From a phage: a stretch of 64,000 bases of DNA. Each line of letters begins with the position of its first letter. Within the stretch, counting starts at the first letter, position 1. A program made the translations under genes and the position numbers. A model generated the notes under the pieces. It saw only the letters and a list, made by a program, of their open reading frames with translations, had not been told where the DNA came from and made no database searches. This document shows, one piece after another, positions 23,863-44,765 of the stretch. Location: the sequence record PX880101.1, one strand, 5' to 3'.

Positions 23863-24282
23863 ATGAACATTAAATCTAATAATCCGGCATATAGCTTTGA
23901 TAACGCTTTTTGTCACGGTCCGGCGGCGAAAGGATTCGAAATCGATGGTAAACTAATTATTGTCAATGTTGACGGGGAAGAGGTTGCAGTATATCCGGTG
24001 GCAGACGTAAAAAGCCGTTTACAATGCCGCATTGATGTTACCGCCTATCAGCTTGATCCGGTCCGCATAGTTGCCCTGGTCCTGGAAGAAGAAATTAAAG
24101 CCATGCACCATAGCAACAGATTTATTGGTGACGCGCAGGATAATATGAAAGTATGCCGCCATAAAGTTAATGAAGTGCTTAAAGAGTACGGCTATAAAGA
24201 TCTTATGATCAAACGTGAGGAAAAATTCCGCTACCGTAACGACCTGGCAAATCGAATCTATGAAATATACGAATCATTATAA
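23863..24282 (+). CDS. hypothetical protein
   Basis: TAAGAGGTAAAAACACC-ATG. Confidence 0.55.
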   Translation: MNIKSNNPAYSFDNAFCHGPAAKGFEIDGKLIIVNVDGEEVAVYPVADVKSRLQCRIDVTAYQLDPVRIVALVLEEEIKAMHHSNRFIGDAQDNMKVCRHKVNEVLKEYGYKDLMIKREEKFRYRNDLANRIYEIYESL

Positions 24283-24300
24283 TTTCTTAACTAAACTATC

Positions 24301-24328
24301 AGGGGCTTTAAAAGGCCCCTTTCTTTTT
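24301..24328 (+). terminator. Rho-independent terminator closing the plus-strand early block
   Basis: AGGGGCTTT-A-AAAGGCCCCT followed by TTCTTTTTGT. Confidence 0.6.
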
Positions 24329-24929
24329 GTCTGTATTTCTCCTACCACAAACGGCCCAGCCTGGCAAGTGGAATAATTGACTAGCCATCAATCCCACACA
24401 CTGTACAAATATACATGGAAAATAACTATTGCATAATTTTTCATTGTGTGGTAGCAAGTCCATTTTTACCCGTTTTCTCTCTCAAAATTGCACGTAATGC
24501 CGCTATTGCACAAATTTTAACCTGATGCACATCTCCAATATCTTGTCAACAACTAAAAATCTTTATAAGTCATACACTTACACAGCATCGAAAGCGTGTT
24601 CTACGCGAAAAATCGAGTATAACTATAGCCGCCAGATCTCAGAATTCACGTACGCACGCCATTCTATAGCCTGCAAAGTATTTATTCCAACCACAGAATA
24701 ACGGAATAGTCAATACCTGCATAAAATAATTATTCGTGTAAACTGCATAACATAAATCAGCTCAGGTGTCAACATTTTTCGTAAACAGTCCGAAATTATC
24801 ACGATGAGTTATCATAAACAGAGAAATCTTTAGTCGTCTAATGTTTACTGTACATTACTATACTGACTGGAATCATTAGATGACTAAGAGAAAGATAAGA
24901 AATAATTAATAATGTAATTATTTTACCTG

Positions 24930-25240
24930 TAACAATAAGGCAACTATGCAAACGAATGGCATGGCGCGACGGAGTCGCGACATAATATAAAAGCAGTAAC
25001 CATCACCCCCGTGATAGTTTGTCTGCAATCTATTAATCAGATCATAGTTGCCTTGTATTCAGTTAATCATGACATAATAAGCAAGGCAACTATAGATCTG
25101 CTAATAGTTGCCCTGCTTTTATATTATGTCATAGAAACACCCGAAGGGGTGACCAAAGGTCACCTGGCATGGCCAGTGAAAGATTATTAACTTGTTAATT
25201 GTTAACTTGCTAATTGTTTTCATGCAAACGAATGTCATGG
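24930..25240. repeat. Cluster of inverted and direct repeats (GGCAACTAT in both orientations; 18-bp inverted arms GACATAATATAAAAGCAG; CATGCAAACGAATGNCATGGC direct repeat; palindrome CGCGAC-GGA-GTCGCG)
   Basis: Read directly from the sequence. Confidence 0.6.
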
Positions 25241-25249
25241 CTTATCCTA

Positions 25250-25330
25250 TCTGTGTAAACAGTTAAGGTGTAAACTATCCAGGCGTAAACAGTCTATGCG
25301 GGAACAATCTATACGTGAACAGTGAAACAT
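25250..25330. repeat. Iteron-like array: five or six copies of GT(A/G)AAC(A) at about 15-bp spacing
   Basis: tgtgTAAACAg, gtGTAAACt, gcGTAAACAg, gGGAACAat, cGTGAACAg, GTGAAACat. Confidence 0.55.
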
Positions 25331-26805
25331 GAAATAATAACAATCGTTATTGTGTCGAAAGTGTATAAGGTGTCATAGTATGTCAGACAAGTTTTTCTCC
25401 TCTTTGTCAAGTGCTGCATGAAAATTTACAAACTGGTATGGTAGCATTTTTGCGGCCCTGTTTACATTCAGTTGTGTATGTATAACCCTTGTTGTGTGGG
25501 CGTTTAGACGTCTGGACGGTTGGAAGTCTACAGGTCAATATCTAATCTATTGGCTGCTAACTATATCCCACACAAATAGTAAGAAATACAATTGTTATGT
25601 GAGTAAACGGTAACTCATGTTATCAATCCCTGTATGGATCGCCAGTGGTGCGCATAATGGGTATTATGTTAAATTGCCCGTAATGATAACTATTCTCACA
25701 ATGATAGGTATTCTCATTCACTCCCACAAGATAGGTTGCAAATGTTGTGCCACTGTGTGAACGGCCTCACCTATTAATTTGCCTCACTGCCTCGATATTT
25801 GAGAATTGTTATAAGAATGAGAAGTATTCCCATTTCGTCCGCCTGGCAGCACTCCAGTCGCTACCGCTCATGACAGGGCAGAACTGGGTCCATTCAGATA
25901 TTTCTGGCTGACTCTTCAGGTCTGTGTGGGAAAAGCCAACCTCTCCGGCGGGGCAGGGGTAGGTCAATTAAAAAATTTACGTGGTGTATGAAGAGCCCTT
26001 CAGGTAAGGCATGTATTATGGGATGAAACACCCTTCAGGCAATGATATTTGTGGGTGGGATATTTGCTGGAAAGCCAGATATGACGGGACTCCTGGCGGG
26101 GCAGGGGTAGTACAGACAGGGGAAATATGGTGGATGTAGTTGGGTGGATTGATCAGGCAGGTAGAGTATGGAATATGTTACAAGTATGTTAAATATGGAG
26201 GATGAATATCTGTAGGATTTGTGTGTAAAATCAAAGACTTAAGTGGTGTTGTGGTATTTTCTATAAATAATTCAAGTTTAATAGGTAATATTTGTCTCTA
26301 TCCGCTTTGTGTGGTAAACAAATTCAGATGGTGTTGGTTTACAAGTGTATACATAATATACAAATTAAAGATACAAGAAACCCCCCTCCCCCTTCGGCTA
26401 CCATTCACCTTTTCCTCTGACTGGTACTTAAACACTTATTCAGACTCTTCAGGTTATCACCCATATATCATATGGCAGTGACTGGTGTCCTCCGGCCCCT
26501 CTTTCGTCACCCGTCCGCTTCGCCATGCTAATGCCATAGCCAACGGTTCGGTTGTTCACCCTGTTCACTCAGGTGTATCTCCATACCCCTTCAAACCGAA
26601 GAGAACAGAAAACCCGAATTACTCGGTAAAAGAAAAGAGAAGAACTTAATTTTATCAGGATAGGCAAGAATGTCAAGGCATGACTGCTCACTAAACAAGC
26701 AAACAGTCATGTGTGGAAGGTAAGTGATTGTGGTGGTAGGAAATTTAGTTGAAAGATGTGTTATAGGTGCGCTTCCAGCACTTTAGCCGGGCAGCTAATT
26801 GTGTG

Positions 26806-27021
26806 TCAGTCCAGCGGTTCATCCTCTACTTCACTGAAATCAATGTTCATGGTCTCTTCCCAACCATCGATCTCAGCACAAGAGTGGAGTTCTTTAGGGT
26901 TTACTCCCAAAGCCTCAGCAACAGAGTCTATATTTAACACCTCTGGCAGGTATGATTCATCGAATTCAAGGTAAATCAGGCCACGAGTGTTGTCAGCTCC
27001 ACCAAATATTTCTATCTTCAT
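26806..27021 (-). CDS. hypothetical small acidic protein (N-terminus MKIEIFGG)
   Basis: Own promoter with extended -10 (TGTATAAT) and CAGAGGAGA SD upstream on the minus strand. Confidence 0.5.
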   Translation of the reverse strand: MKIEIFGGADNTRGLIYLEFDESYLPEVLNIDSVAEALGVNPKELHSCAEIDGWEETMNIDFSEVEDEPLD

Positions 27022-27142
27022 AAAATCTCCTCTGGAAATGAGAGTGTGAACAGGGTTTTATACGTTCTAATGCACAGGAATTATACACGTTTTCCTCTTC
27101 AGGCCATGCTTTAGCATGAGGAACCTGTGTGGGCTCGGTGCT

Positions 27143-27355
27143 TCATAGTCTACCACCCCTGAACTCTTCGTGCTCAGGCATAATAGAGAACCAGATATCT
27201 ACGATGTCTTCCCACGTTAGGTCATCAGCCTCAGGATCTACCTGGAGCGAAGATGGAGAATCTTCAGAATCGAAGTTTTCCTCTTTCACTGGCTCAGCCA
27301 AGGGACATATAGTCACTCCTTTGGATGTCTCTTCAGATGCATGTGTGTTTATCAT
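27143..27355 (-). CDS. hypothetical acidic protein
   Basis: ORF in the minus-strand array. Confidence 0.45.
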   Translation of the reverse strand: MINTHASEETSKGVTICPLAEPVKEENFDSEDSPSSLQVDPEADDLTWEDIVDIWFSIMPEHEEFRGGRL

Positions 27356-27715
27356 GTTCCACCCGTGAGTATTCCGGCAACAGCCGCTATGGACGTAATG
27401 ATCATCAGGATCACCACTAAAACTTCGGACAATGTTCTCATTGTGTACCTCATATTCTCCAAACTATGTGTGGATACTATCACGAGAGTGGCAATGTGTC
27501 AACAGAAACGCCGCGAGGGTTTGGTTAAAATCCGAGCGTATGGTGATTTGGGTCAAAACGGACGTGCGTTCTCGCTACGCTCGAAATATGGAGTTGTTTG
27601 TAGGAAGCTCTTAAACGCTCTGTAATGAGATTATCTGTCCAAGGTATGCAATCGTGCACCAGATAAAGAAAAGGACGCCACAGAGCGTCCTAGGTGTCTT
27701 AAATTTGATATTTTG

Positions 27716-28015
27716 CTATACCCATGAGGGCTTATCAAGGTTGGAGTAGCTGAAAGGTGTCAAAAGGTGACTGTCAAAATCCCTCAAACTATCCAAATCT
27801 TTTTCCTCGTCCTGACACCATCTGTGCCTACATTTATTGTTGTAGTGCATGGAATGCATGGCGTTCTGCAACTTAACAGGCACAAGTGATTCAGGAGTAG
27901 ATAGTATTGTTGGGTATGCCAGAACCACCTCAAACAGTGGAAACACATCGAAACTAAAGTCTACCTCTGCAGAGGTTGATGGCATATAGGAGTATTTAGC
28001 CGCCTTTGTAGACAT
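27716..28015 (-). CDS. hypothetical protein
   Basis: ATG after GAGGTGG overlapping the upstream stop. Confidence 0.45.
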   Translation of the reverse strand: MSTKAAKYSYMPSTSAEVDFSFDVFPLFEVVLAYPTILSTPESLVPVKLQNAMHSMHYNNKCRHRWCQDEEKDLDSLRDFDSHLLTPFSYSNLDKPSWV

Positions 28016-35650: not shown

Positions 35651-36121
35651 CTACTTAAATAGTAGTTCAAAATAGTGCAAAATTAACAGAAGTTGAACTA
35701 CACCTAGTGCAACGGCGAGTATGTTAATCTTAGAATCGAAAAACTTCTTAACTTTTACTCTAAAAGGTTCCTTAATGTCCTTTACGATCCTATCTATAGA
35801 TGACCTCATATCCCTGATTACCATCCTGAACATTAAAGACGGATGCTCCCCCATCTCTGTAACGGAATCGAAAACATACTCTCTTCGGTCATAAGGGCCG
35901 CCAGCTCTGCGTATTAACCTCTCCACAGAGACCTCGAACGTCACACCTGTAACGTAATCATCTATAACAAGTCGTGACGGGTCTTTACCTTTACTATCAA
36001 GAGGTATCAAAGTTATCTTTCCAGATTTTGTTAAAATTTCCCCTTTTTCAAGCAAGGTGTACCAATGCTCTCTGCCAAGACTGTTGAGGCACGTTTTTAC
36101 ATATTTAACAAACATCGTCAC
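35651..36121 (-). CDS. hypothetical protein with C-terminal TM helix
   Basis: Hydrophobic C-terminus. Confidence 0.5.
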   Translation of the reverse strand: MTMFVKYVKTCLNSLGREHWYTLLEKGEILTKSGKITLIPLDSKGKDPSRLVIDDYVTGVTFEVSVERLIRRAGGPYDRREYVFDSVTEMGEHPSLMFRMVIRDMRSSIDRIVKDIKEPFRVKVKKFFDSKINILAVALGVVQLLLILHYFELLFK

Positions 36122-36303
36122 CCCTCATCGCACGTCTGATATAACCACTCTATAAAATCTTGATACCATTCGCCCTCTGAGCGCTCCGTAGGCCAATAAT
36201 CTTCACCCTCTCGTGCATTAAAATCTGAGTATTCAACTTTCCACTCCTTTACCAGCTCGTGGAGAAGGTTTTCAGCCTGCTCTAAAGATTTATTTTTTAC
36301 CAT
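36118..36303 (-). CDS. hypothetical protein
   Basis: ATG after AAGGAGA. Confidence 0.4.
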   Translation of the reverse strand: MVKNKSLEQAENLLHELVKEWKVEYSDFNAREGEDYWPTERSEGEWYQDFIEWLYQTCDEG

Positions 36304-37980: not shown

Positions 37981-38216
37981 AATCTAGGCTCCTTAAATGA
38001 ATCTATGTAATCAATTAAATCCCAAGCATCGCGATGGGCTGTCAGAGGGTATACTTCTCCGAGAGGGATCATAGCAATAAGTCTATCAAAAACCCAGTCT
38101 GGACGCAACATTTTATGGTGATATTCCCACTCACCTTCCACAGATTTTTTCTCAGTGATCAGGATCTCTGTGTAGTGTTTCGCCTGTCTTGAGTAGATTG
38201 AAAATGACTTGTACAT
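37977..38216 (-). CDS. hypothetical protein
   Basis: Internal ATG after AAGAGGGGG. Confidence 0.4.
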   Translation of the reverse strand: MYKSFSIYSRQAKHYTEILITEKKSVEGEWEYHHKMLRPDWVFDRLIAMIPLGEVYPLTAHRDAWDLIDYIDSFKEPRL

Positions 38217-38252
38217 AAATGACCCCCTCTTGTTGAAAACAACAATACACAA

Positions 38253-38537
38253 CTACCAGGTTACTGTCAAGTAGGCAACCGTATTATTTTTCTCTGGGGA
38301 GATGCCAACAACATCTACCTGCAGACCTCCTGCCCTTAAATCTCCAACAATGTGCGGGAAGTAATCTGAGAGATGCGAGGGTAGATTTATCGAAAATCCG
38401 CACCCCAGAAAGCCTGCTAACGCTTTATTTTGTATCTCCCCTACAATCGCATCATAAATGGAGTTAAGCTCGTCAGGGAGCGTTACAGGACGTTTTAGCG
38501 CTAACTGGTGTAATTTGTCCTTAGCACTCATTTTCAT
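38253..38537 (-). CDS. hypothetical protein
   Basis: ATG overlaps the methyltransferase stop (ATGA). Confidence 0.45.
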   Translation of the reverse strand: MKMSAKDKLHQLALKRPVTLPDELNSIYDAIVGEIQNKALAGFLGCGFSINLPSHLSDYFPHIVGDLRAGGLQVDVVGISPEKNNTVAYLTVTW

Positions 38538-39067
38538 TTCAGGTCTACCTCTGGTGGTGCCAACCACATAAATGGCGGCAAGCCTAAACGGTTTTTCTTA
38601 TCCCACACAAAATATGCATATGCTTGCCCGTCAGTTCTGCCATTTGATTGAAAAGATGGACGCTTAGATATTGTGATCACAGTGGTAGGTGCATTATCAA
38701 GCCACCATTCAAATCTGGCTTTGCTTTCCAGAAAATTAAGACGCAAAAGCATAATAACTACGTCAGCATCTTTCAACGCCTTGTCTACAAACTCACGAGC
38801 CAAACTGTATGGTGGGTTGGTGATAATACAGTCAACATGGTTGTATTCTGTATTCAGATAGTCAACACCTTCTTGGATTTCTCCCCATGCAGATCCTAAC
38901 GGCATACGGGAGTAGAACACACCTGAGGCACTATTCCTGCAAGGCTCTAAGTAGGTCCAGTCTTCTGGGAACGGAATAAGGTCATACAGCCCTTCTGCAC
39001 ACCACTCCGGTGTCACATACTCATCGTAGGCGTTACGTTGTTCATCAGGTTTTCGAGCACAAGTCAT
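38534..39067 (-). CDS. DNA methyltransferase (N6-adenine or N4-cytosine type, NPPY motif)
   Basis: IITNPPYSLAREF catalytic motif. Confidence 0.6.
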   Translation of the reverse strand: MTCARKPDEQRNAYDEYVTPEWCAEGLYDLIPFPEDWTYLEPCRNSASGVFYSRMPLGSAWGEIQEGVDYLNTEYNHVDCIITNPPYSLAREFVDKALKDADVVIMLLRLNFLESKARFEWWLDNAPTTVITISKRPSFQSNGRTDGQAYAYFVWDKKNRLGLPPFMWLAPPEVDLK

Positions 39068-39118
39068 GCAAATCTCCAGATCATAAAAGCCCTCCGAAGA
39101 GGGCTTTAGAATTAATGT

Positions 39119-40168
39119 TTAAGCTTCTTCGACAATCCCTGCACCCAGGATTTTTTCATTGAGCTCTTTTGCTGTTTTAATAATATTGTCCACCAGACGC
39201 TTGCGAGTCTTATCTTTTACCTTAACCTCTTCACCGCCGTTCAGGGTTGTCTTCAATTGGGACAGAATGTCTTGAAGTTCAACGACAGAGAATCGCTGCA
39301 GATCTTCTGAGGTAATCTCGCCTAAGGCAATCTTAACGGTCTCACCACTTTCCATCTGCAGGTTCAGGAACACAGTGTGAACATCACCTTTCGAACCACC
39401 CGCTTTTGCAGATTCAACAGCATGAACTAGCTCATCTAAAGAGGTGCACTGGTGAATCTCCGGAAGACCTGCTTCACCTAGCACACCTTCTTCATCACCT
39501 TTTGCCAAAAGCTTTTTAGGTTTTTGTCCGTTCTGGATGCGTTGTATGTTGCCTTCATCCAGAATGATAGCTCCAGTTCGAGCTGCCAGCTCCTCTCCGT
39601 CCAACCACACTTCGCCACCAGCTGTGATGGATGCGATCTCATCTTCTGTCAGCACCCAACCGTAGTATTTTTCGATCAGGCGTTCGAAACGTTTTTTCCA
39701 GTAGCTGACCTGAGTATTCATGTTCACACCATTGCCATAAGTGCCGCCTTGATAGTAGTGGAACATAAACTCTGTGTCCGGAGCCACAGTGCGTTCTTTG
39801 CAACCCAGCCATAGGATTGTTCCAGCAGAGCAGCACATCCCTTCAGCATGTGCAACAACGCTTGCCTGAGACTCGCGGAATGCCTGTAGATAAGCCATTG
39901 CAATGTGCACGCAACCCCCAGGGCTATTGATGATCACACGAATGCTTTCTTCCGGCTGAGCCATACGGATCGTCTGCAGACGAGACATATGATCCTGCAG
40001 GTCCTCCAAATCGTCGATATAAAGAACGTGGTCAACAACAGGTGTTGGGTAGCTGTATGTTTCCATAATACCACCCGGCATACCAAACATTTTATTACTC
40101 ATAGGTTCGAAACCGTTCTGTTTTTCTTTCATGCCGTGTACCATGGTGCTGCGAGGTGTTAAATTCAT
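39119..40168 (-). CDS. ClpP/S14-family serine protease with about 150-aa C-terminal extension
   Basis: VINSPGGCVHIAMAYL and GMCCSAGTIL (active-site Ser context). Confidence 0.65.
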   Translation of the reverse strand: MNLTPRSTMVHGMKEKQNGFEPMSNKMFGMPGGIMETYSYPTPVVDHVLYIDDLEDLQDHMSRLQTIRMAQPEESIRVIINSPGGCVHIAMAYLQAFRESQASVVAHAEGMCCSAGTILWLGCKERTVAPDTEFMFHYYQGGTYGNGVNMNTQVSYWKKRFERLIEKYYGWVLTEDEIASITAGGEVWLDGEELAARTGAIILDEGNIQRIQNGQKPKKLLAKGDEEGVLGEAGLPEIHQCTSLDELVHAVESAKAGGSKGDVHTVFLNLQMESGETVKIALGEITSEDLQRFSVVELQDILSQLKTTLNGGEEVKVKDKTRKRLVDNIIKTAKELNEKILGAGIVEEA

Positions 40169-40228
40169 GAGAAATCCTTAATATTGGAAGTTGAAAGCTA
40201 TTTATTTAAACCTGATTCACATTTACCT

Positions 40229-40540
40229 TTATTTAGCAATCACTATGGAATACTTACGATTGTCAGAAGCATCACAACTCAATGATTGCCAGTCTACCAC
40301 ATACCACGTATCATTGTCAACAATTACTTTATCGCCTGTTCTGTAGCAGATGCTGCTTTCAATAATTCGAGACTCGATAAAGAATCTGTGTCGGCGCTCA
40401 CGTAGCAACGCTAAGTTGATTATGTTACCACCGCTGTCCTTGATCCACACATTCTTGGATCCTTTATTTGCCAAAATTGTCTCGCCGTTATAGACAAACA
40501 GGCAGTATATTTTATTCAGTTTCTCTTGTATTGTAGCCAT
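40229..40540 (-). CDS. hypothetical protein
   Basis: Promoter TTGACA-N17-TATTAT (40566-40597) and GAGAGAAGGA SD. Confidence 0.5.
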   Translation of the reverse strand: MATIQEKLNKIYCLFVYNGETILANKGSKNVWIKDSGGNIINLALLRERRHRFFIESRIIESSICYRTGDKVIVDNDTWYVVDWQSLSCDASDNRKYSIVIAK

Positions 40541-40565
40541 ACTGTCCTTCTCTCTGTTTTGTCCG

Positions 40566-40597
40566 ATAATAATATCTAAAGTTTACCTATTTGTCAA
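40566..40597 (-). promoter_or_regulatory. sigma70-like promoter TTGACA-N17-TATTAT (minus strand)
   Basis: Minus-strand hexamers; preceded by hairpin GGGTGG-TTATT-CCACCC, a possible terminator after phoH. Confidence 0.55.
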
Positions 40598-40641
40598 CAA
40601 CTGTTTTAGATATTTAAGGGTGGAATAACCACCCTTCTGTA

Positions 40642-41430
40642 TTACTCGGAAACAGGGGTCCAAATATGATTTGCACGATCCTCAATAAGATTGAGTGCGA
40701 TCTGACGACCCAACCCAGAACGAACGACATCGTCTGGACTATCAAAGCTGATCATTCCAACCTCAGGATCTGGATGACGAGTAAAGAAATCCGTCACCCA
40801 TGCAAGGCCAGATTTACCAGGGATGTCACGTTGGCTATTATCACCCATAATTACAAGGGTGGCTTGATCAGAGATCCTTGTGATAATTGACAACATTTCT
40901 TCAGGGTTAGTTTGCTGTGCCTCGTCAATCAGGACAAAGCATCGCTCATCGAAACTACGACCACGAATGCTTTCAACTTCACAAATCTCGATACGGCTGT
41001 TCTGACCGTCTCCCAGCATTGCGGCAAAAGCACCTTTGCCAACACGACGACAAATCGTGTCCATCATGCTTCGAAGATAGGGCCACAGTTTCTGCATTGC
41101 ATTTCCAGGTTTAAATCCTGAAGTCTTTCCTGTCTGAACGTAAGGACGTGCAACAATAATCTTATCAATCTCGTTCTTACGCAGAAGATCACCTGCATAT
41201 GCAGATGCCATGAATGTCTTACCGGATCCAAACACACCGTTTACAATAATAATCTTACGTGACCCTAGATAATCAAGATACTTTTGCTGCTTCTTATTCA
41301 TTGGTCGGAGAGCTGGAGCGGTGTGCTCTCTTTCGTCAGCAAATTTCTCAGCAGCCTTACGCAGGCGATCAGATTTGCGAGCCTCTCTAGCTTCATCACG
41401 CATGCGCTTTGTTTCTTTAGCTCGACCCAT
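40642..41430 (-). CDS. phoH: PhoH-like ATPase
   Basis: Walker A VNGVFGSGKTFMA and PhoH-like length and layout. Confidence 0.8.
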   Translation of the reverse strand: MGRAKETKRMRDEAREARKSDRLRKAAEKFADEREHTAPALRPMNKKQQKYLDYLGSRKIIIVNGVFGSGKTFMASAYAGDLLRKNEIDKIIVARPYVQTGKTSGFKPGNAMQKLWPYLRSMMDTICRRVGKGAFAAMLGDGQNSRIEICEVESIRGRSFDERCFVLIDEAQQTNPEEMLSIITRISDQATLVIMGDNSQRDIPGKSGLAWVTDFFTRHPDPEVGMISFDSPDDVVRSGLGRQIALNLIEDRANHIWTPVSE

Positions 41431-41468
41431 GTTGGGACTCCTTTCAGATTGAGATGTGCCAAGTACTT

Positions 41469-41819
41469 TTACTGCAACAGTTTTTCAATAGCCGCTTCCA
41501 TGCTGCTTGCAACAGCCTGAACTCGGATATTCATCTCTTCTTGGTGGATCAGCTCCTTAAGCTCTTTAATGGTAAATTCTTTAGAGAAACCTTCCACCAT
41601 AATCTTGTGCAAGGCTTCTTGCGTGTCTACTTGCAAGAACTTTTCCAGTTTGTTGGCAGAGGCTTCTAAATCAGCCCGAATACGAGGGTCATCTGTGCGA
41701 TTCAGCATTAGGCGTAAGCCATCAAGATTAGTAGAAATAGCATCTGCATGTTGAGTAACTAACCGTGGCAAAATGAGATCTACAAACTTATTAGCCAAAT
41801 CGATACGTTCTTGTGTCAC
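41469..41819 (-). CDS. hypothetical protein (GTG start)
   Basis: GTG overlaps the upstream stop (GTGA). Confidence 0.45.
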   Translation of the reverse strand: MTQERIDLANKFVDLILPRLVTQHADAISTNLDGLRLMLNRTDDPRIRADLEASANKLEKFLQVDTQEALHKIMVEGFSKEFTIKELKELIHQEEMNIRVQAVASSMEAAIEKLLQ

Positions 41820-41929
41820 TGTTGCACCCCCTCTTCATCTTCATGATGTTTCTTTTCACGCTTGTGTTTTTTCTTAAGCTCAAGCGCAATCTCTTTCTTG
41901 TACGCCTTCTTCAAGGCTTTTTTAGCCAT
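41816..41929 (-). CDS. hypothetical small basic protein (37 aa)
   Basis: ATG after GAGGAGGTG; K/R/H-rich; not in the supplied ORF track. Confidence 0.35.
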   Translation of the reverse strand: MAKKALKKAYKKEIALELKKKHKREKKHHEDEEGVQQ

Positions 41930-41991
41930 TTGGCACCTCCTCTGCTTTCATTACGGCAATTATAACCAACTCAACAAAGCTTTGTCAACAA

Positions 41992-42465
41992 CTAGTCTAC
42001 CTGAACCCAACCGCCTGATACTTTTTTAAACATTCTTTGGTTATCACTGCCTCGGAACGGTTTCTTGGTTGGTAAATCTTTTACATACTTACCGTCAATG
42101 ATGATATCAGCCAGTTTAAGAACATCACTAGAGATATGGTCAAATGTGAACCCAGTATATACAAGAATAGTTTTCTTGTCACCAAATTTTTCCTTAATTT
42201 TCTCCATCAGGCTAATAATATCTGGCTCATTATAGTATGCTAAGGGTTCTCCACCCAGTAGAGAGATACCGCACACAGACGGGTTATCTAAATCTGACAA
42301 GATTTTTTGCAAGTCTTCTTCAGTGAACTTCCTCCCCTTATCTTTTGACCAAAATGCCTGATTAAAGCAACCAGGGCAAGCGTGTGGGCACCCAGATACC
42401 CACAAGGCAGTTCTAATACCTGGTCCTTCGGTGTAAGATATTTCTGTGTATCCAGCAATGTTCAT
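41992..42465 (-). CDS. nrdG: Anaerobic ribonucleotide reductase activating protein (radical SAM)
   Basis: CPHACPGC CxxxCxxC cluster; adjacent to nrdD. Confidence 0.85.
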   Translation of the reverse strand: MNIAGYTEISYTEGPGIRTALWVSGCPHACPGCFNQAFWSKDKGRKFTEEDLQKILSDLDNPSVCGISLLGGEPLAYYNEPDIISLMEKIKEKFGDKKTILVYTGFTFDHISSDVLKLADIIIDGKYVKDLPTKKPFRGSDNQRMFKKVSGGWVQVD

Positions 42466-42578
42466 AGATACTCCGCATCACATTTAGGGCAATGCCAAAT
42501 AAAATCGTCTAGTGCCTTGCACCAACGAAGATTACAACTACAGCCGCACTTGCAAATTTTATAAATACCTGATGACAT
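42462..42578 (-). CDS. hypothetical zinc-ribbon micro-protein between nrdD and nrdG (38 aa)
   Basis: ATG after TAGGAGGTG; CKCGCSC...CPKC; stop overlaps the nrdG ATG. Confidence 0.4.
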   Translation of the reverse strand: MSSGIYKICKCGCSCNLRWCKALDDFIWHCPKCDAEYL

Positions 42579-42641: not shown

Positions 42642-44765
42642 TCAGCAACCACAACTTCCGTAGTGCTTAACTCGCTCGATAACTTCCGCTTGCTTACCTT
42701 TATTGTAAGGACGGGAGTTAGGACTGGAAAGGTATCCAGACACACGTCGAATTACACTGATCGTTCCCTCTTCATGGTTTCCACACTCTGGGCATACAAA
42801 GCCTTTAGCTGTTGCACTGAACTCACCAGAGAAACCACACTTGAGACATTTATCCACAGGTTGGTTAATACCAAAATACATAATGTGTTTATACCCGAAG
42901 TCAACAAGAGCCTCTAAAGCATCCAGGTTGTTTTTCAGGTTAGGTGTTTCTACGTATCCGATGTTGCCACCAGAGGAGATCATAGCAAAACCTTCCTCAT
43001 ACTCCCACTTATCAAAAGGAGAGCTATTTATCCATACTGGCTGATGGAAACTGTTGGTGAGATATTCATGCTCGTGCTTCAACACTTCCGGATATTCACG
43101 ATCCAGACAGGTTGCAGCTTTATAGCATAGACTCTCAGAAGGAGTGCCGTACAAGCTAAATGCTAGTCTACTTTCCTTCTTGTATCGCTCACAAGCATCT
43201 CTCATGTGCTGAAGGATTCCAAGAGCTAAAGCCTTGTCACCCTCTCTGCCCAAAATCTGACAGGTTTCATACACACCGATATACCCAATACTGATGGAAG
43301 CGTACCCGTCATAGAAGAGTTTATCAATACTCTCTTCAGGATCCAGGCGAGCAAGAGCGCCTTCACACCACATGATGGGGTTCTGCCCTGCCTTTGTTCC
43401 TTTTAGACGATTAACCCTTACAAGGTGAGCCTCGTATGCAAGATCCAAGTATTCGTCAAGAACTGCAAAGAAATCAACACCTTCCGTCTTGGCTTTTGCC
43501 GCAATCATTGGCAGGTTAAGGCTAACAACGCCTAAGTTAAATCTGCCAAGGTATTTCTCCTCGCCTGTTTCCAAGTCATTGTATTTGCTAAGAAAACTCC
43601 TGCAACCCATGCTAGTTACTTTGCCATCTGTCGAGCCTGTCACTTTTCTATTTAGTGGTACAGATACGAAGTCAGGATAGATACGTTCTGCACAGCATTC
43701 CAGAGCTAATCGTTTCAAATCATAGTTAGGATCCCCAGGGTTCATGTTGACACCCTCTTCCAGGAAGAACAGCACTTTAGGGAACACAGGTGTGATACGT
43801 TCTTCACCAAGACCCATTTTGTGGACTTTCAGGTAGTTTTTGGTAATCATTCTACCAAAGACCGAGGTATCCAGTCCTAAACTCAATGTGATGAATGGAG
43901 TTTGCCCGTTGACAGAAGTTAACGTGTTGATTTGATAGAGCAAAGTCTGCATGCTGTCAAATACGTCTTTATCTGTCATTTGCATTGCAACAGTTTCAGC
44001 ATCCGGCAACCAATGTTCCTGGCAAAATTTAAGGTTCTTCTCATAGGTTGCTTCAGCATACTGTGCCAGATAATGATCAATATGGCTCATAGTCTGACCA
44101 CCATATTGAGCACTAGCTACCGCACTAGAGATTTGGCTAAGGATTGTTGTTGCAACCCCTATTGACTTCGGCTTACTGACATAGGCGTTACCAATGTTGA
44201 ATCCGTTTTCCAACATATCTGGATAATTTACCAAACAACAGTTTGTTAACGGACTGATCAAGTAGTCAAGATCATGCACATGGATGAATCCTTTATTGTG
44301 CTCTTCGGAGACACGGTCTGGCAGGATCTGTGTTGATGCAAGGTGTTTGCTAAGAATACCTGCAAGCAGGTCGCGATGAGTGTGTACATGATTAGTAGGC
44401 TTATTTGCGTTTTCTTTTGTAAATTCATCACAAGTTCGATCCAAGAAGCCACTAATATCTGCAAGCAGTTTTCCACCTGCCTCTCTGTTATTATCTCTTG
44501 TCTGTCTATACTGGATGTATTCTCTGGCTGCACATTTTAAACCCATATCCATAAGAGCATCTTCAACAAGGATATGGATATTTTTTACAGAGATCGTGCA
44601 CTGGTCGGTTGGTAGATTGTTAGCAACAACTTCATTAACCGCGCAGGCGATCCGGTAAGCTTCTTCTTCAGTATGTCCAGACTCAAGTAAGGCGGACTCT
44701 GCCGCCTTGATCACCTTAATTCCGTTATAGAACTCTTCTCTACCGTCCCGTTTTACAACTTTCAC
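42642..44765 (-). CDS. nrdD: Anaerobic ribonucleoside-triphosphate reductase (class III) with ATP cone
   Basis: N-terminal ATP-cone KRDGREEFYNGIKV; glycyl-radical motif RRVSGYL near the C-terminus; cysteine cluster. Confidence 0.9.
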   Translation of the reverse strand: MKVVKRDGREEFYNGIKVIKAAESALLESGHTEEEAYRIACAVNEVVANNLPTDQCTISVKNIHILVEDALMDMGLKCAAREYIQYRQTRDNNREAGGKLLADISGFLDRTCDEFTKENANKPTNHVHTHRDLLAGILSKHLASTQILPDRVSEEHNKGFIHVHDLDYLISPLTNCCLVNYPDMLENGFNIGNAYVSKPKSIGVATTILSQISSAVASAQYGGQTMSHIDHYLAQYAEATYEKNLKFCQEHWLPDAETVAMQMTDKDVFDSMQTLLYQINTLTSVNGQTPFITLSLGLDTSVFGRMITKNYLKVHKMGLGEERITPVFPKVLFFLEEGVNMNPGDPNYDLKRLALECCAERIYPDFVSVPLNRKVTGSTDGKVTSMGCRSFLSKYNDLETGEEKYLGRFNLGVVSLNLPMIAAKAKTEGVDFFAVLDEYLDLAYEAHLVRVNRLKGTKAGQNPIMWCEGALARLDPEESIDKLFYDGYASISIGYIGVYETCQILGREGDKALALGILQHMRDACERYKKESRLAFSLYGTPSESLCYKAATCLDREYPEVLKHEHEYLTNSFHQPVWINSSPFDKWEYEEGFAMISSGGNIGYVETPNLKNNLDALEALVDFGYKHIMYFGINQPVDKCLKCGFSGEFSATAKGFVCPECGNHEEGTISVIRRVSGYLSSPNSRPYNKGKQAEVIERVKHYGSCGC

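Follow-up and report, generated by a model that had tools for sequence, protein, structure and literature searches.

Introduction

Bacterial ClpP (MEROPS S14; TIGR00493; E. coli ClpP, PDB 1TYF and 2FZS) and the ClpP-related phage head maturation proteases are the described systems closest to the phage protein reported here. Bacterial ClpP has the same fold, and the head maturation proteases, which like the protein itself are phage-encoded, are the closest curated relatives of its catalytic core. A homologous core is also present in the PHROG 1827-type genes of other lytic phages (ICP1 gp211, PAK_P1 gp173, D481_0041 and Kpn02), which lie in a neighbourhood of nucleotide-metabolism or replication genes, as does the gene in rV5-like phages. 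In the searchable library of literature no characterised phage ClpP-like non-structural protease was found, and none of the gp122-type relatives is characterised there. The paper on a host-factor screen with the V5-like phage LL12 does not mention Clp or Lon dependence.

The gene encoding the protein is located on a 64,000-nt stretch of phage DNA (sequence record PX880101.1), which is referred to here as the window. Its family is already catalogued in GenBank, as PHROG 5410 and in Table S3 of rV5. Here we present a description of the gene, its product and its surroundings, which adds a reading of the protein as neither a canonical ClpP nor a head protease, a lineage-restricted C-terminal module, and a proposed class of second proteases that recurs in replication modules among large lytic phages.

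Classification and features

The window originates from an rV5-like Vequintavirus, and the protease gene is rV5 ORF122 (gp122), or nomo_125 in Escherichia phage nomo (MN850578, Vequintavirus). Positions 38000-42500 of the window are 100% identical to nomo, and many rV5-like phages are at least 98% identical over the same interval. The source is a close relative of nomo and not nomo itself, because nrdD is an intact ORF of 707 aa in the window, whereas the nrdD of nomo is split by an HNH homing endonuclease.

More than 100 GenBank records of the rV5 ORF122-type gene carry the label "ClpP ATP-dependent protease subunit". The protein gives a full-length profile match to PHROG 5410 ('ATP-dependent protease') with E=7.7e-155, residues 24-345 falling on positions 4-322 of 323, and its residues 59-168 match Pfam CLP_protease (PF00574) with E=2.3e-12 (47.6 bits versus a gathering threshold of 20.2). 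In an AlphaFold2 monomer model built on 20 homologues the core (residues 50-210) has a pLDDT of about 85-93, and the top 50 PDB matches of this model in Foldseek are all ClpP, with target-normalised TM scores of 0.65-0.73. Because of the agreement of the Pfam, PHROG 5410 and AlphaFold2/Foldseek matches, the resemblance is real and far beyond chance, and the ClpP/S14-like core with GMCCSAGT (residues 110-117) that had been read from the sequence is confirmed. The label 'ClpP/S14-like' holds for the fold alone; in its scores the protein stays below the curated thresholds, and it lacks the docking features of true ClpP. The features of the locus are listed in Table 1.

Table 1. Features of the ClpP-fold protease locus and its neighbours (window positions)
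Feature	Position	Strand	Remarks
DNA methyltransferase-like gene	38534..39067		adjoins the protease gene
Intrinsic-terminator-like hairpin	39082..39107	-	12 nt past the protease stop codon
CDS, 349-aa ClpP-fold protease, PHROG 5410	39119..40168	-	ATG start; stop codon included
C-terminal domain, residues 262-349, beta-hairpin and helix-loop-helix	39122..39385	-	model, profile search
Post-core motif NIQRIQNGQKP (206-216) and variable charged linker (217-261)	39386..39553	-	alignment, model
ClpP-fold catalytic core, residues 45-205	39554..40036	-	profile alignments, model
Codons of Ser114; His137; Glu186	39827-39829; 39758-39760; 39611-39613	-	
N-terminal region, residues 1-44, FGMPG...YSYP motif	40037..40168	-	disorder predicted; alignment
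Shine-Dalgarno AAGGA	40175..40179	-	6-nt spacer before the ATG at 40168
ORF121 homologue, 103 aa, PHROG 5456 (unknown function)	40229..40540	-	first gene of putative two-gene unit
Sigma-70-type promoter, TTGACA-17-TATTAT, 11/12	40569..40597	-	read from 40597 to 40569, upstream of ORF121 and the protease; rV5-annotated P121
PhoH	40642..41430		
NrdG (rV5 ORF117)	41992..42465	-	
NrdD	42642..44765	-	intact ORF

Genomic context and transcription signals

The gene was predicted to lie among nucleotide-metabolism genes, and its neighbours agree with this: PhoH, NrdG, NrdD, further on NrdB/NrdA, and the methyltransferase-like gene. The ORF121 homologue is annotated as 'PhoH-like protein' in nomo (nomo_126); it has no PhoH match. 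The annotation of nomo_130 as 'putative minor capsid protein' was considered as structural context and dismissed, the product being NrdG. A PADLOC scan of the protease and ORF121 gave no match.

A near-consensus sigma-70 promoter is found on the coding strand 5' of ORF121 and the protease, and a terminator-like hairpin follows downstream, with a 9-bp GC-rich stem, a UUCG loop and then UUUUAU (-14.7 kcal/mol; no shuffle folds as well). As the two signals bracket both genes, this suggests that ORF121 and the protease form a compact unit read by host RNA polymerase. Gene 122 of rV5 belongs to transcription unit 82-163 together with DNA-metabolism genes, and the late morphogenesis genes 27-66 form a separate unit with a T4-late-like motif (PMC3606486). 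A search for the rV5 late motif upstream of the protease returned a single copy with 1 mismatch, located inside ORF121 and with the mismatch in the motif core, which is uninformative.

In the whole window this T4-late-like motif of rV5, TGGTAAAATA, occurs in 18 copies with at most 1 mismatch, versus 6.0 +/- 2.3 expected. Most of the copies lie in the block of minus-strand genes and on that same strand, and the motif resembles an extended -10 element. At about 24000..28000 of the window the GC skew changes sign and the gene orientation switches. The counterpart of this region in nomo (about 53-55.5 kb) contains almost no annotated genes and one annotated repeat, and the published map of rV5 shows a 'non-coding' box.

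About 3 kb downstream of the protease, at 35651..36121 (minus strand), the window encodes a protein homologous to gp133 of rV5 (PHROG 7821, 'virion structural protein'). Its gene lies in the DNA-metabolism unit, far from the structural module, and is preceded by a copy of the rV5 late-promoter motif with 1 mismatch (36293..36302, minus strand). gp133 is reported to be among the predominant proteins in the mass spectrometry (MS) of rV5 virions and could be an internal or injected protein.

Active site and docking surface

The alignment of the protease family comprises 20 relatives of 304-355 aa, which share 40-69% identity with the protease of the window. Mean pairwise identity is 73% in the core, 31% in the C-terminal domain and 14% in the linker region. 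INSPGG, C-S114-A-G-T and M-F-H137 are invariant in this alignment, and neither the nucleophile Ser114 nor the general base His137 varies among about 26 relatives. Both residues align exactly with those of bacterial ClpP, where the Ser is found in G-x-x-x-S-x-G and the His in M-x-H. The INSPGG oxyanion region and the long handle helix, retained at residues 150-169 in the AlphaFold2 monomer model, are likewise shared with bacterial ClpP, and the QGG motif is retained. In HMMER alignments the position of ClpP Asp171 corresponds to Glu186 in a G-x-[D/E/Q]-hydrophobic-W motif. This position is occupied by Gln in 15 of the 20 relatives, by Glu in the protein of the window, its closest relatives and PAK_P1, and by Asp in ICP1 gp211. 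A global MAFFT alignment with E. coli ClpP wrongly placed the ClpP C-terminus on the phage C-terminal domain, and local HMM alignments were used instead.

Identity to bacterial ClpP is about 20%, and the phage protein differs from it by the Glu or Gln in place of Asp171 and by an extra C-terminal extension of 144 aa. Against TIGR00493, the ClpP equivalog, the protein scores 33.2 bits versus a cut-off of 308.6. HMM alignments to E. coli ClpP start only at strand beta-1, so that nothing in the phage protease corresponds to the axial loop and helix A at the N-terminus of ClpP. In E. coli ClpP the IGF/IGL loops of ClpX/ClpA insert into a hydrophobic pocket, which we take to consist of Y60, Y62, F82, I90, M92, F112 and L114 (ClpP-ADEP and ClpXP structures). 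By sequence alignment, not superposition, these positions correspond to R77, I/V79, E99, H107, E109, T127 and A/S129 in the phage family. Five of the seven aligned positions are invariant and polar or charged, with R77, E99, H107, E109 and T127 in place of Y60, F82, I90, M92 and F112.

Because of the low TIGR00493 score, the absence of the axial loop and helix A and the unconserved docking pocket, the 'ATP-dependent' ClpP label is unsupported at the level of sequence, and the annotation as a ClpP subunit appears to be an uncritical transfer. The region of the docking pocket (residues 77-129; window 39827..40036 region) contains an invariant polar set that includes an invariant T-H-A-E-G motif, and the patch R77/E99/H107/E109/T127 could be a new interaction or metal-binding surface.

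Terminal regions

The N-terminal residues (about 1-44) are variable and predicted to be disordered, apart from the conserved FGMPG...YSYP motif. Behind the core, the extension (residues 206-349) is 30% charged and its folded part is mostly helical. The charged, helix-rich tail of about 150 aa that was described at first is correct in these respects, but it is not uniform. It consists of a post-core motif conserved in the family as NIKRxQxGQxP (206-216), a largely disordered linker region that varies from 18 to 45 aa across the family, and a C-terminal domain of about 85 aa in which a beta-hairpin is followed by a helix-loop-helix (pLDDT 82 when modelled alone). F293, E297 and R322 are invariant in the C-terminal domain, which is net acidic, with a charge of -7 to -19 in most relatives.

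An exhaustive profile search among 1.84 billion representative proteins found the C-terminal domain in five clusters, three of them full-length proteins of the same architecture and two fragments of such proteins. When the extension was scanned against Pfam on its own, all matches were noise below the thresholds (e.g., MpsC with 17 bits versus a cut-off of 23). A fold search of BFVD with the C-terminal domain gave one significant match, a 303-aa protein presumed to belong to the gp122 family, and no viral head protein. The nearest fold is the Rho N-terminal / SAP-like helix-loop-helix (PDB 1A62), with a weak score and no sequence similarity. The phage domain differs from PDB 1A62 by its additional N-terminal beta-hairpin and, being net acidic, from the nucleic-acid-binding SAP/Rho_N domains.

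Capsid maturation in rV5-like phages

In the complete genome of nomo the protease gene is located at 67837-68886, the portal gene at 101606-103162 and the gene for the major capsid protein (MCP) at 105091-106101, with portal and MCP on the opposite strand to the protease gene, at a distance of 33-37 kb. Because of this distance and orientation in the near-identical nomo, the protease gene is not adjacent to portal and capsid genes in the full genome, and the original prediction of a position outside any structural-gene context is upheld.

The head module of nomo is arranged in the order portal (nomo_179), Peptidase_S78_2 protein, 325-aa protein, head decoration protein and lambda-E-type MCP. 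Directly 3' of the portal, a 139-aa XkdF-type protein is encoded that matches Pfam Peptidase_S78_2 (XkdF-like phage serine protease) with E=8.7e-18. It is about 41% identical to the product of the ICP1 gene annotated 'capsid protease' and homologous to the 'prohead core protein protease' of PcCB7V, to phi92 gp121 and to head maturation proteases of phages of Gram-positive hosts. On these similarities, the XkdF-type gene beside the portal is probably the capsid-maturation protease of rV5-like phages. In many GenBank records this gene (nomo 103231-103650) is named 'hypothetical protein', 'DNA methyltransferase' or 'DNA-binding protein', and the best PHROG of its product, 1530, is likewise named 'DNA methyltransferase'. 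The 325-aa protein nomo_181 (VOG1355) received no function in the profile scan and is a probable scaffold. BLASTP of the C-terminal domain of the ClpP-fold protease against this scaffold candidate gave no similarity (best E=0.33).

MS of virions of Pectobacterium phage CB7 detected the portal, CB7_5 (at the XkdF-type position), the VOG1355 protein, the decoration protein and the MCP, and lists no Clp-type protease (PMC7344957). The ClpP-like gene is present in the close CB7 relatives CR8 and POP15. MS of mature rV5 virions, in which 19 proteins were detected, contained 0 of 5 gp122 tryptic peptides. This absence carries little weight, since head proteases are often lost from the capsid and the dataset comprises only 19 proteins.

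The core matches NCBIfam NF045542 ('head maturation protease, ClpP-related') with 60.3 bits versus a cut-off of 120 (E=2.1e-16), and PHROGs 1684, 94, 2976 and 133 (ClpP-related head maturation) are among its best curated-family matches. The match to NF045542 (E=2e-16) is better than that to cellular ClpP (E=4e-8), and this closer relationship suggests that the gp122 core probably descends from head proteases.

Distribution in other large lytic phages

Throughout the sampled genera of Vequintavirinae the protease is conserved, with the fixed gene order PhoH ... protease - methyltransferase. This order, with a few small ORFs between PhoH and the protease, recurs in rV5, Seunavirus EC152 and Certrevirus CR8, and EC152 has a weak ORF121 homologue upstream of its protease gene. 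ICP1 has PhoH, two small ORFs and the protease in the same order.

The core matches PHROG 1827 ('ATP-dependent protease' of other lytic phages) with E=1.3e-39, and its HMM matches include ICP1 gp211 (E=9e-38) and PAK_P1 (E=4e-27). A core-only homologue adjoins a dNMP kinase in the T5-like phage Kpn02, lies between DHFR and repair/replication genes in the KVP40-like D481_0041, and in PAK_P1 (gp173) is surrounded by small genes of the early region, with dCMP deaminase and ligase nearby. Except for ICP1 gp211, the PHROG 1827-type proteins are core-only (148-245 aa), whereas the Vequintavirinae-type proteins are extended; ICP1 gp211 is extended as well. Its extension is similar in length and layout (acidic linker, beta-strands, helices) but has no detectable sequence similarity, and since hhalign found none between the C-terminal domain profile and ICP1 gp211, the extensions of the two types cannot be called homologous. 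The C-terminal domain of beta-hairpin and helix-loop-helix is limited to Vequintavirinae-type proteins.

In ICP1 the block gp176-gp211, of which gp211 is the last gene, contains nucleotide-metabolism genes that peak at 12 min, and the capsid cluster gp122-126 with the predicted protease gp125 is late (PMC7567579). A separate head protease is confirmed in the rV5-like phages and, of the other lineages, only in ICP1. T4-like and T5-like phages have their own head proteases.

Proposed function and significance

With a probability of roughly 60%, gp122 is an auxiliary, non-virion ClpP-fold serine peptidase of the replication phase, a second protease alongside the XkdF-type capsid-maturation protease. 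It would be made during the replication phase of infection, would assemble into ClpP-like rings, for which the handle helix is retained, and would degrade or process specific cytoplasmic proteins of the host or the phage. It would presumably work without docking host ClpX/ClpA, since neither the axial loop nor the hydrophobic pocket for the IGF loops is conserved. Tethered by its flexible linker, the acidic C-terminal domain may serve in protein-protein interaction, either to recruit a substrate or partner or to control entry to the chamber. Of the two functions offered in the original prediction, a protease aimed at host proteins is compatible with all findings and is preferred here with host or phage targets, although no substrate could be inferred.

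The other function offered at the outset was a displaced prohead protease-scaffold fusion. In this reading the C-terminal domain would be a scaffold-like or capsid-targeting module that brings the protease inside the procapsid, for cleavage of scaffold or capsid proteins as the head protease itself or as an additional one. The ClpP-related head maturation families among the best curated matches of the core speak for it, and protease-scaffold fusions classically consist of a protease followed by a helical tail at the C-terminus. The helix-loop-helix at the extreme C-terminus recalls the coat-binding domains of scaffolds, such as the C-terminal helix-loop-helix of the P22 scaffold, and with gp133 another virion protein is encoded within the same non-structural unit. 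Against this stands the XkdF-type protease in the canonical position after the portal. gp122 differs from the ClpP-related head proteases in scoring only half of the NF045542 cut-off, in not lying beside portal and MCP, which are on the other strand, and in being read from a sigma-70 promoter in a DNA-metabolism transcription unit. Its C-terminal domain is unrelated to the scaffold candidate or to the head proteins in BFVD and is acidic, unlike basic coat-binding domains; the protein is absent from the rV5 virion MS, and the ICP1 homologue is in the mid-infection block, apart from the late capsid cluster. The fusion is thus unlikely, and the structural reading is rejected with reasonable confidence. 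An equally improbable explanation is a genuine ClpP subunit, which as a tetradecamer would dock host ClpX/ClpA or mix with host ClpP and so redirect ATP-dependent proteolysis in the infected cell. The fold, the Ser-His pair, the handle helix, the QGG motif and the annotation used in the GenBank records would agree with it, but the TIGR00493 score lies far below the cut-off, the axial loop and helix A cannot be aligned, five of the seven docking positions are invariantly polar or charged, and no phage-encoded ClpX-like partner is adjacent.

A processing protease for phage proteins of the same region, such as gp133 or enzymes of replication and nucleotide metabolism, rather than one for host degradation, is unlikely too, if slightly less so. 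The tight linkage to ORF121, PhoH and the methyltransferase, conserved across genera, and the nearby gp133 gene would fit such a role, whereas core-only homologues of other phage lineages occur without such neighbours. Less probable still is a ClpP-like decoy with weak or no activity, which would titrate a host factor and would have kept its catalytic site by ancestry only. The replacement of the acidic triad residue by Gln in most relatives is in its favour and may indicate reduced or altered activity in these proteins. Because the Ser114/His137 pair and the surrounding INSPGG, CSAGT and MFH motifs do not vary among sequences with an overall identity of only about 40%, we argue for a catalytically competent serine peptidase with a working active site rather than a decoy.

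A wider proposal builds on the auxiliary, replication-phase peptidase and is put forward tentatively, as something possible but doubtful. The ClpP-fold proteases in the nucleotide-metabolism or replication modules of large lytic phages that are unrelated to one another (Vequintavirinae, ICP1, KVP40-like, T5-like and PAK_P1-like phages) might constitute an unrecognised, ATPase-independent class for host takeover or counter-defence. In the Vequintavirinae a specific host protein or defence protein would then be brought to the chamber by the tethered acidic C-terminal domain, with the invariant polar THAEG patch as a new surface for interaction in place of the ClpX-docking pocket.

Two annotations are corrected by this analysis: the ClpP-like gene is neither a canonical ClpP nor a head protease on the present reading, and the XkdF-type gene beside the portal is the probable real capsid protease. 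Large virulent phages of therapy and biocontrol (rV5-like, ICP1, PAK_P1-like and T5-like) carry a conserved second protease. If this protease is autonomous and acts on host or phage proteins during replication, its activity in host takeover or regulation would be new, and the nature of its substrate could show which host pathway or defence has to be neutralised by these phages.
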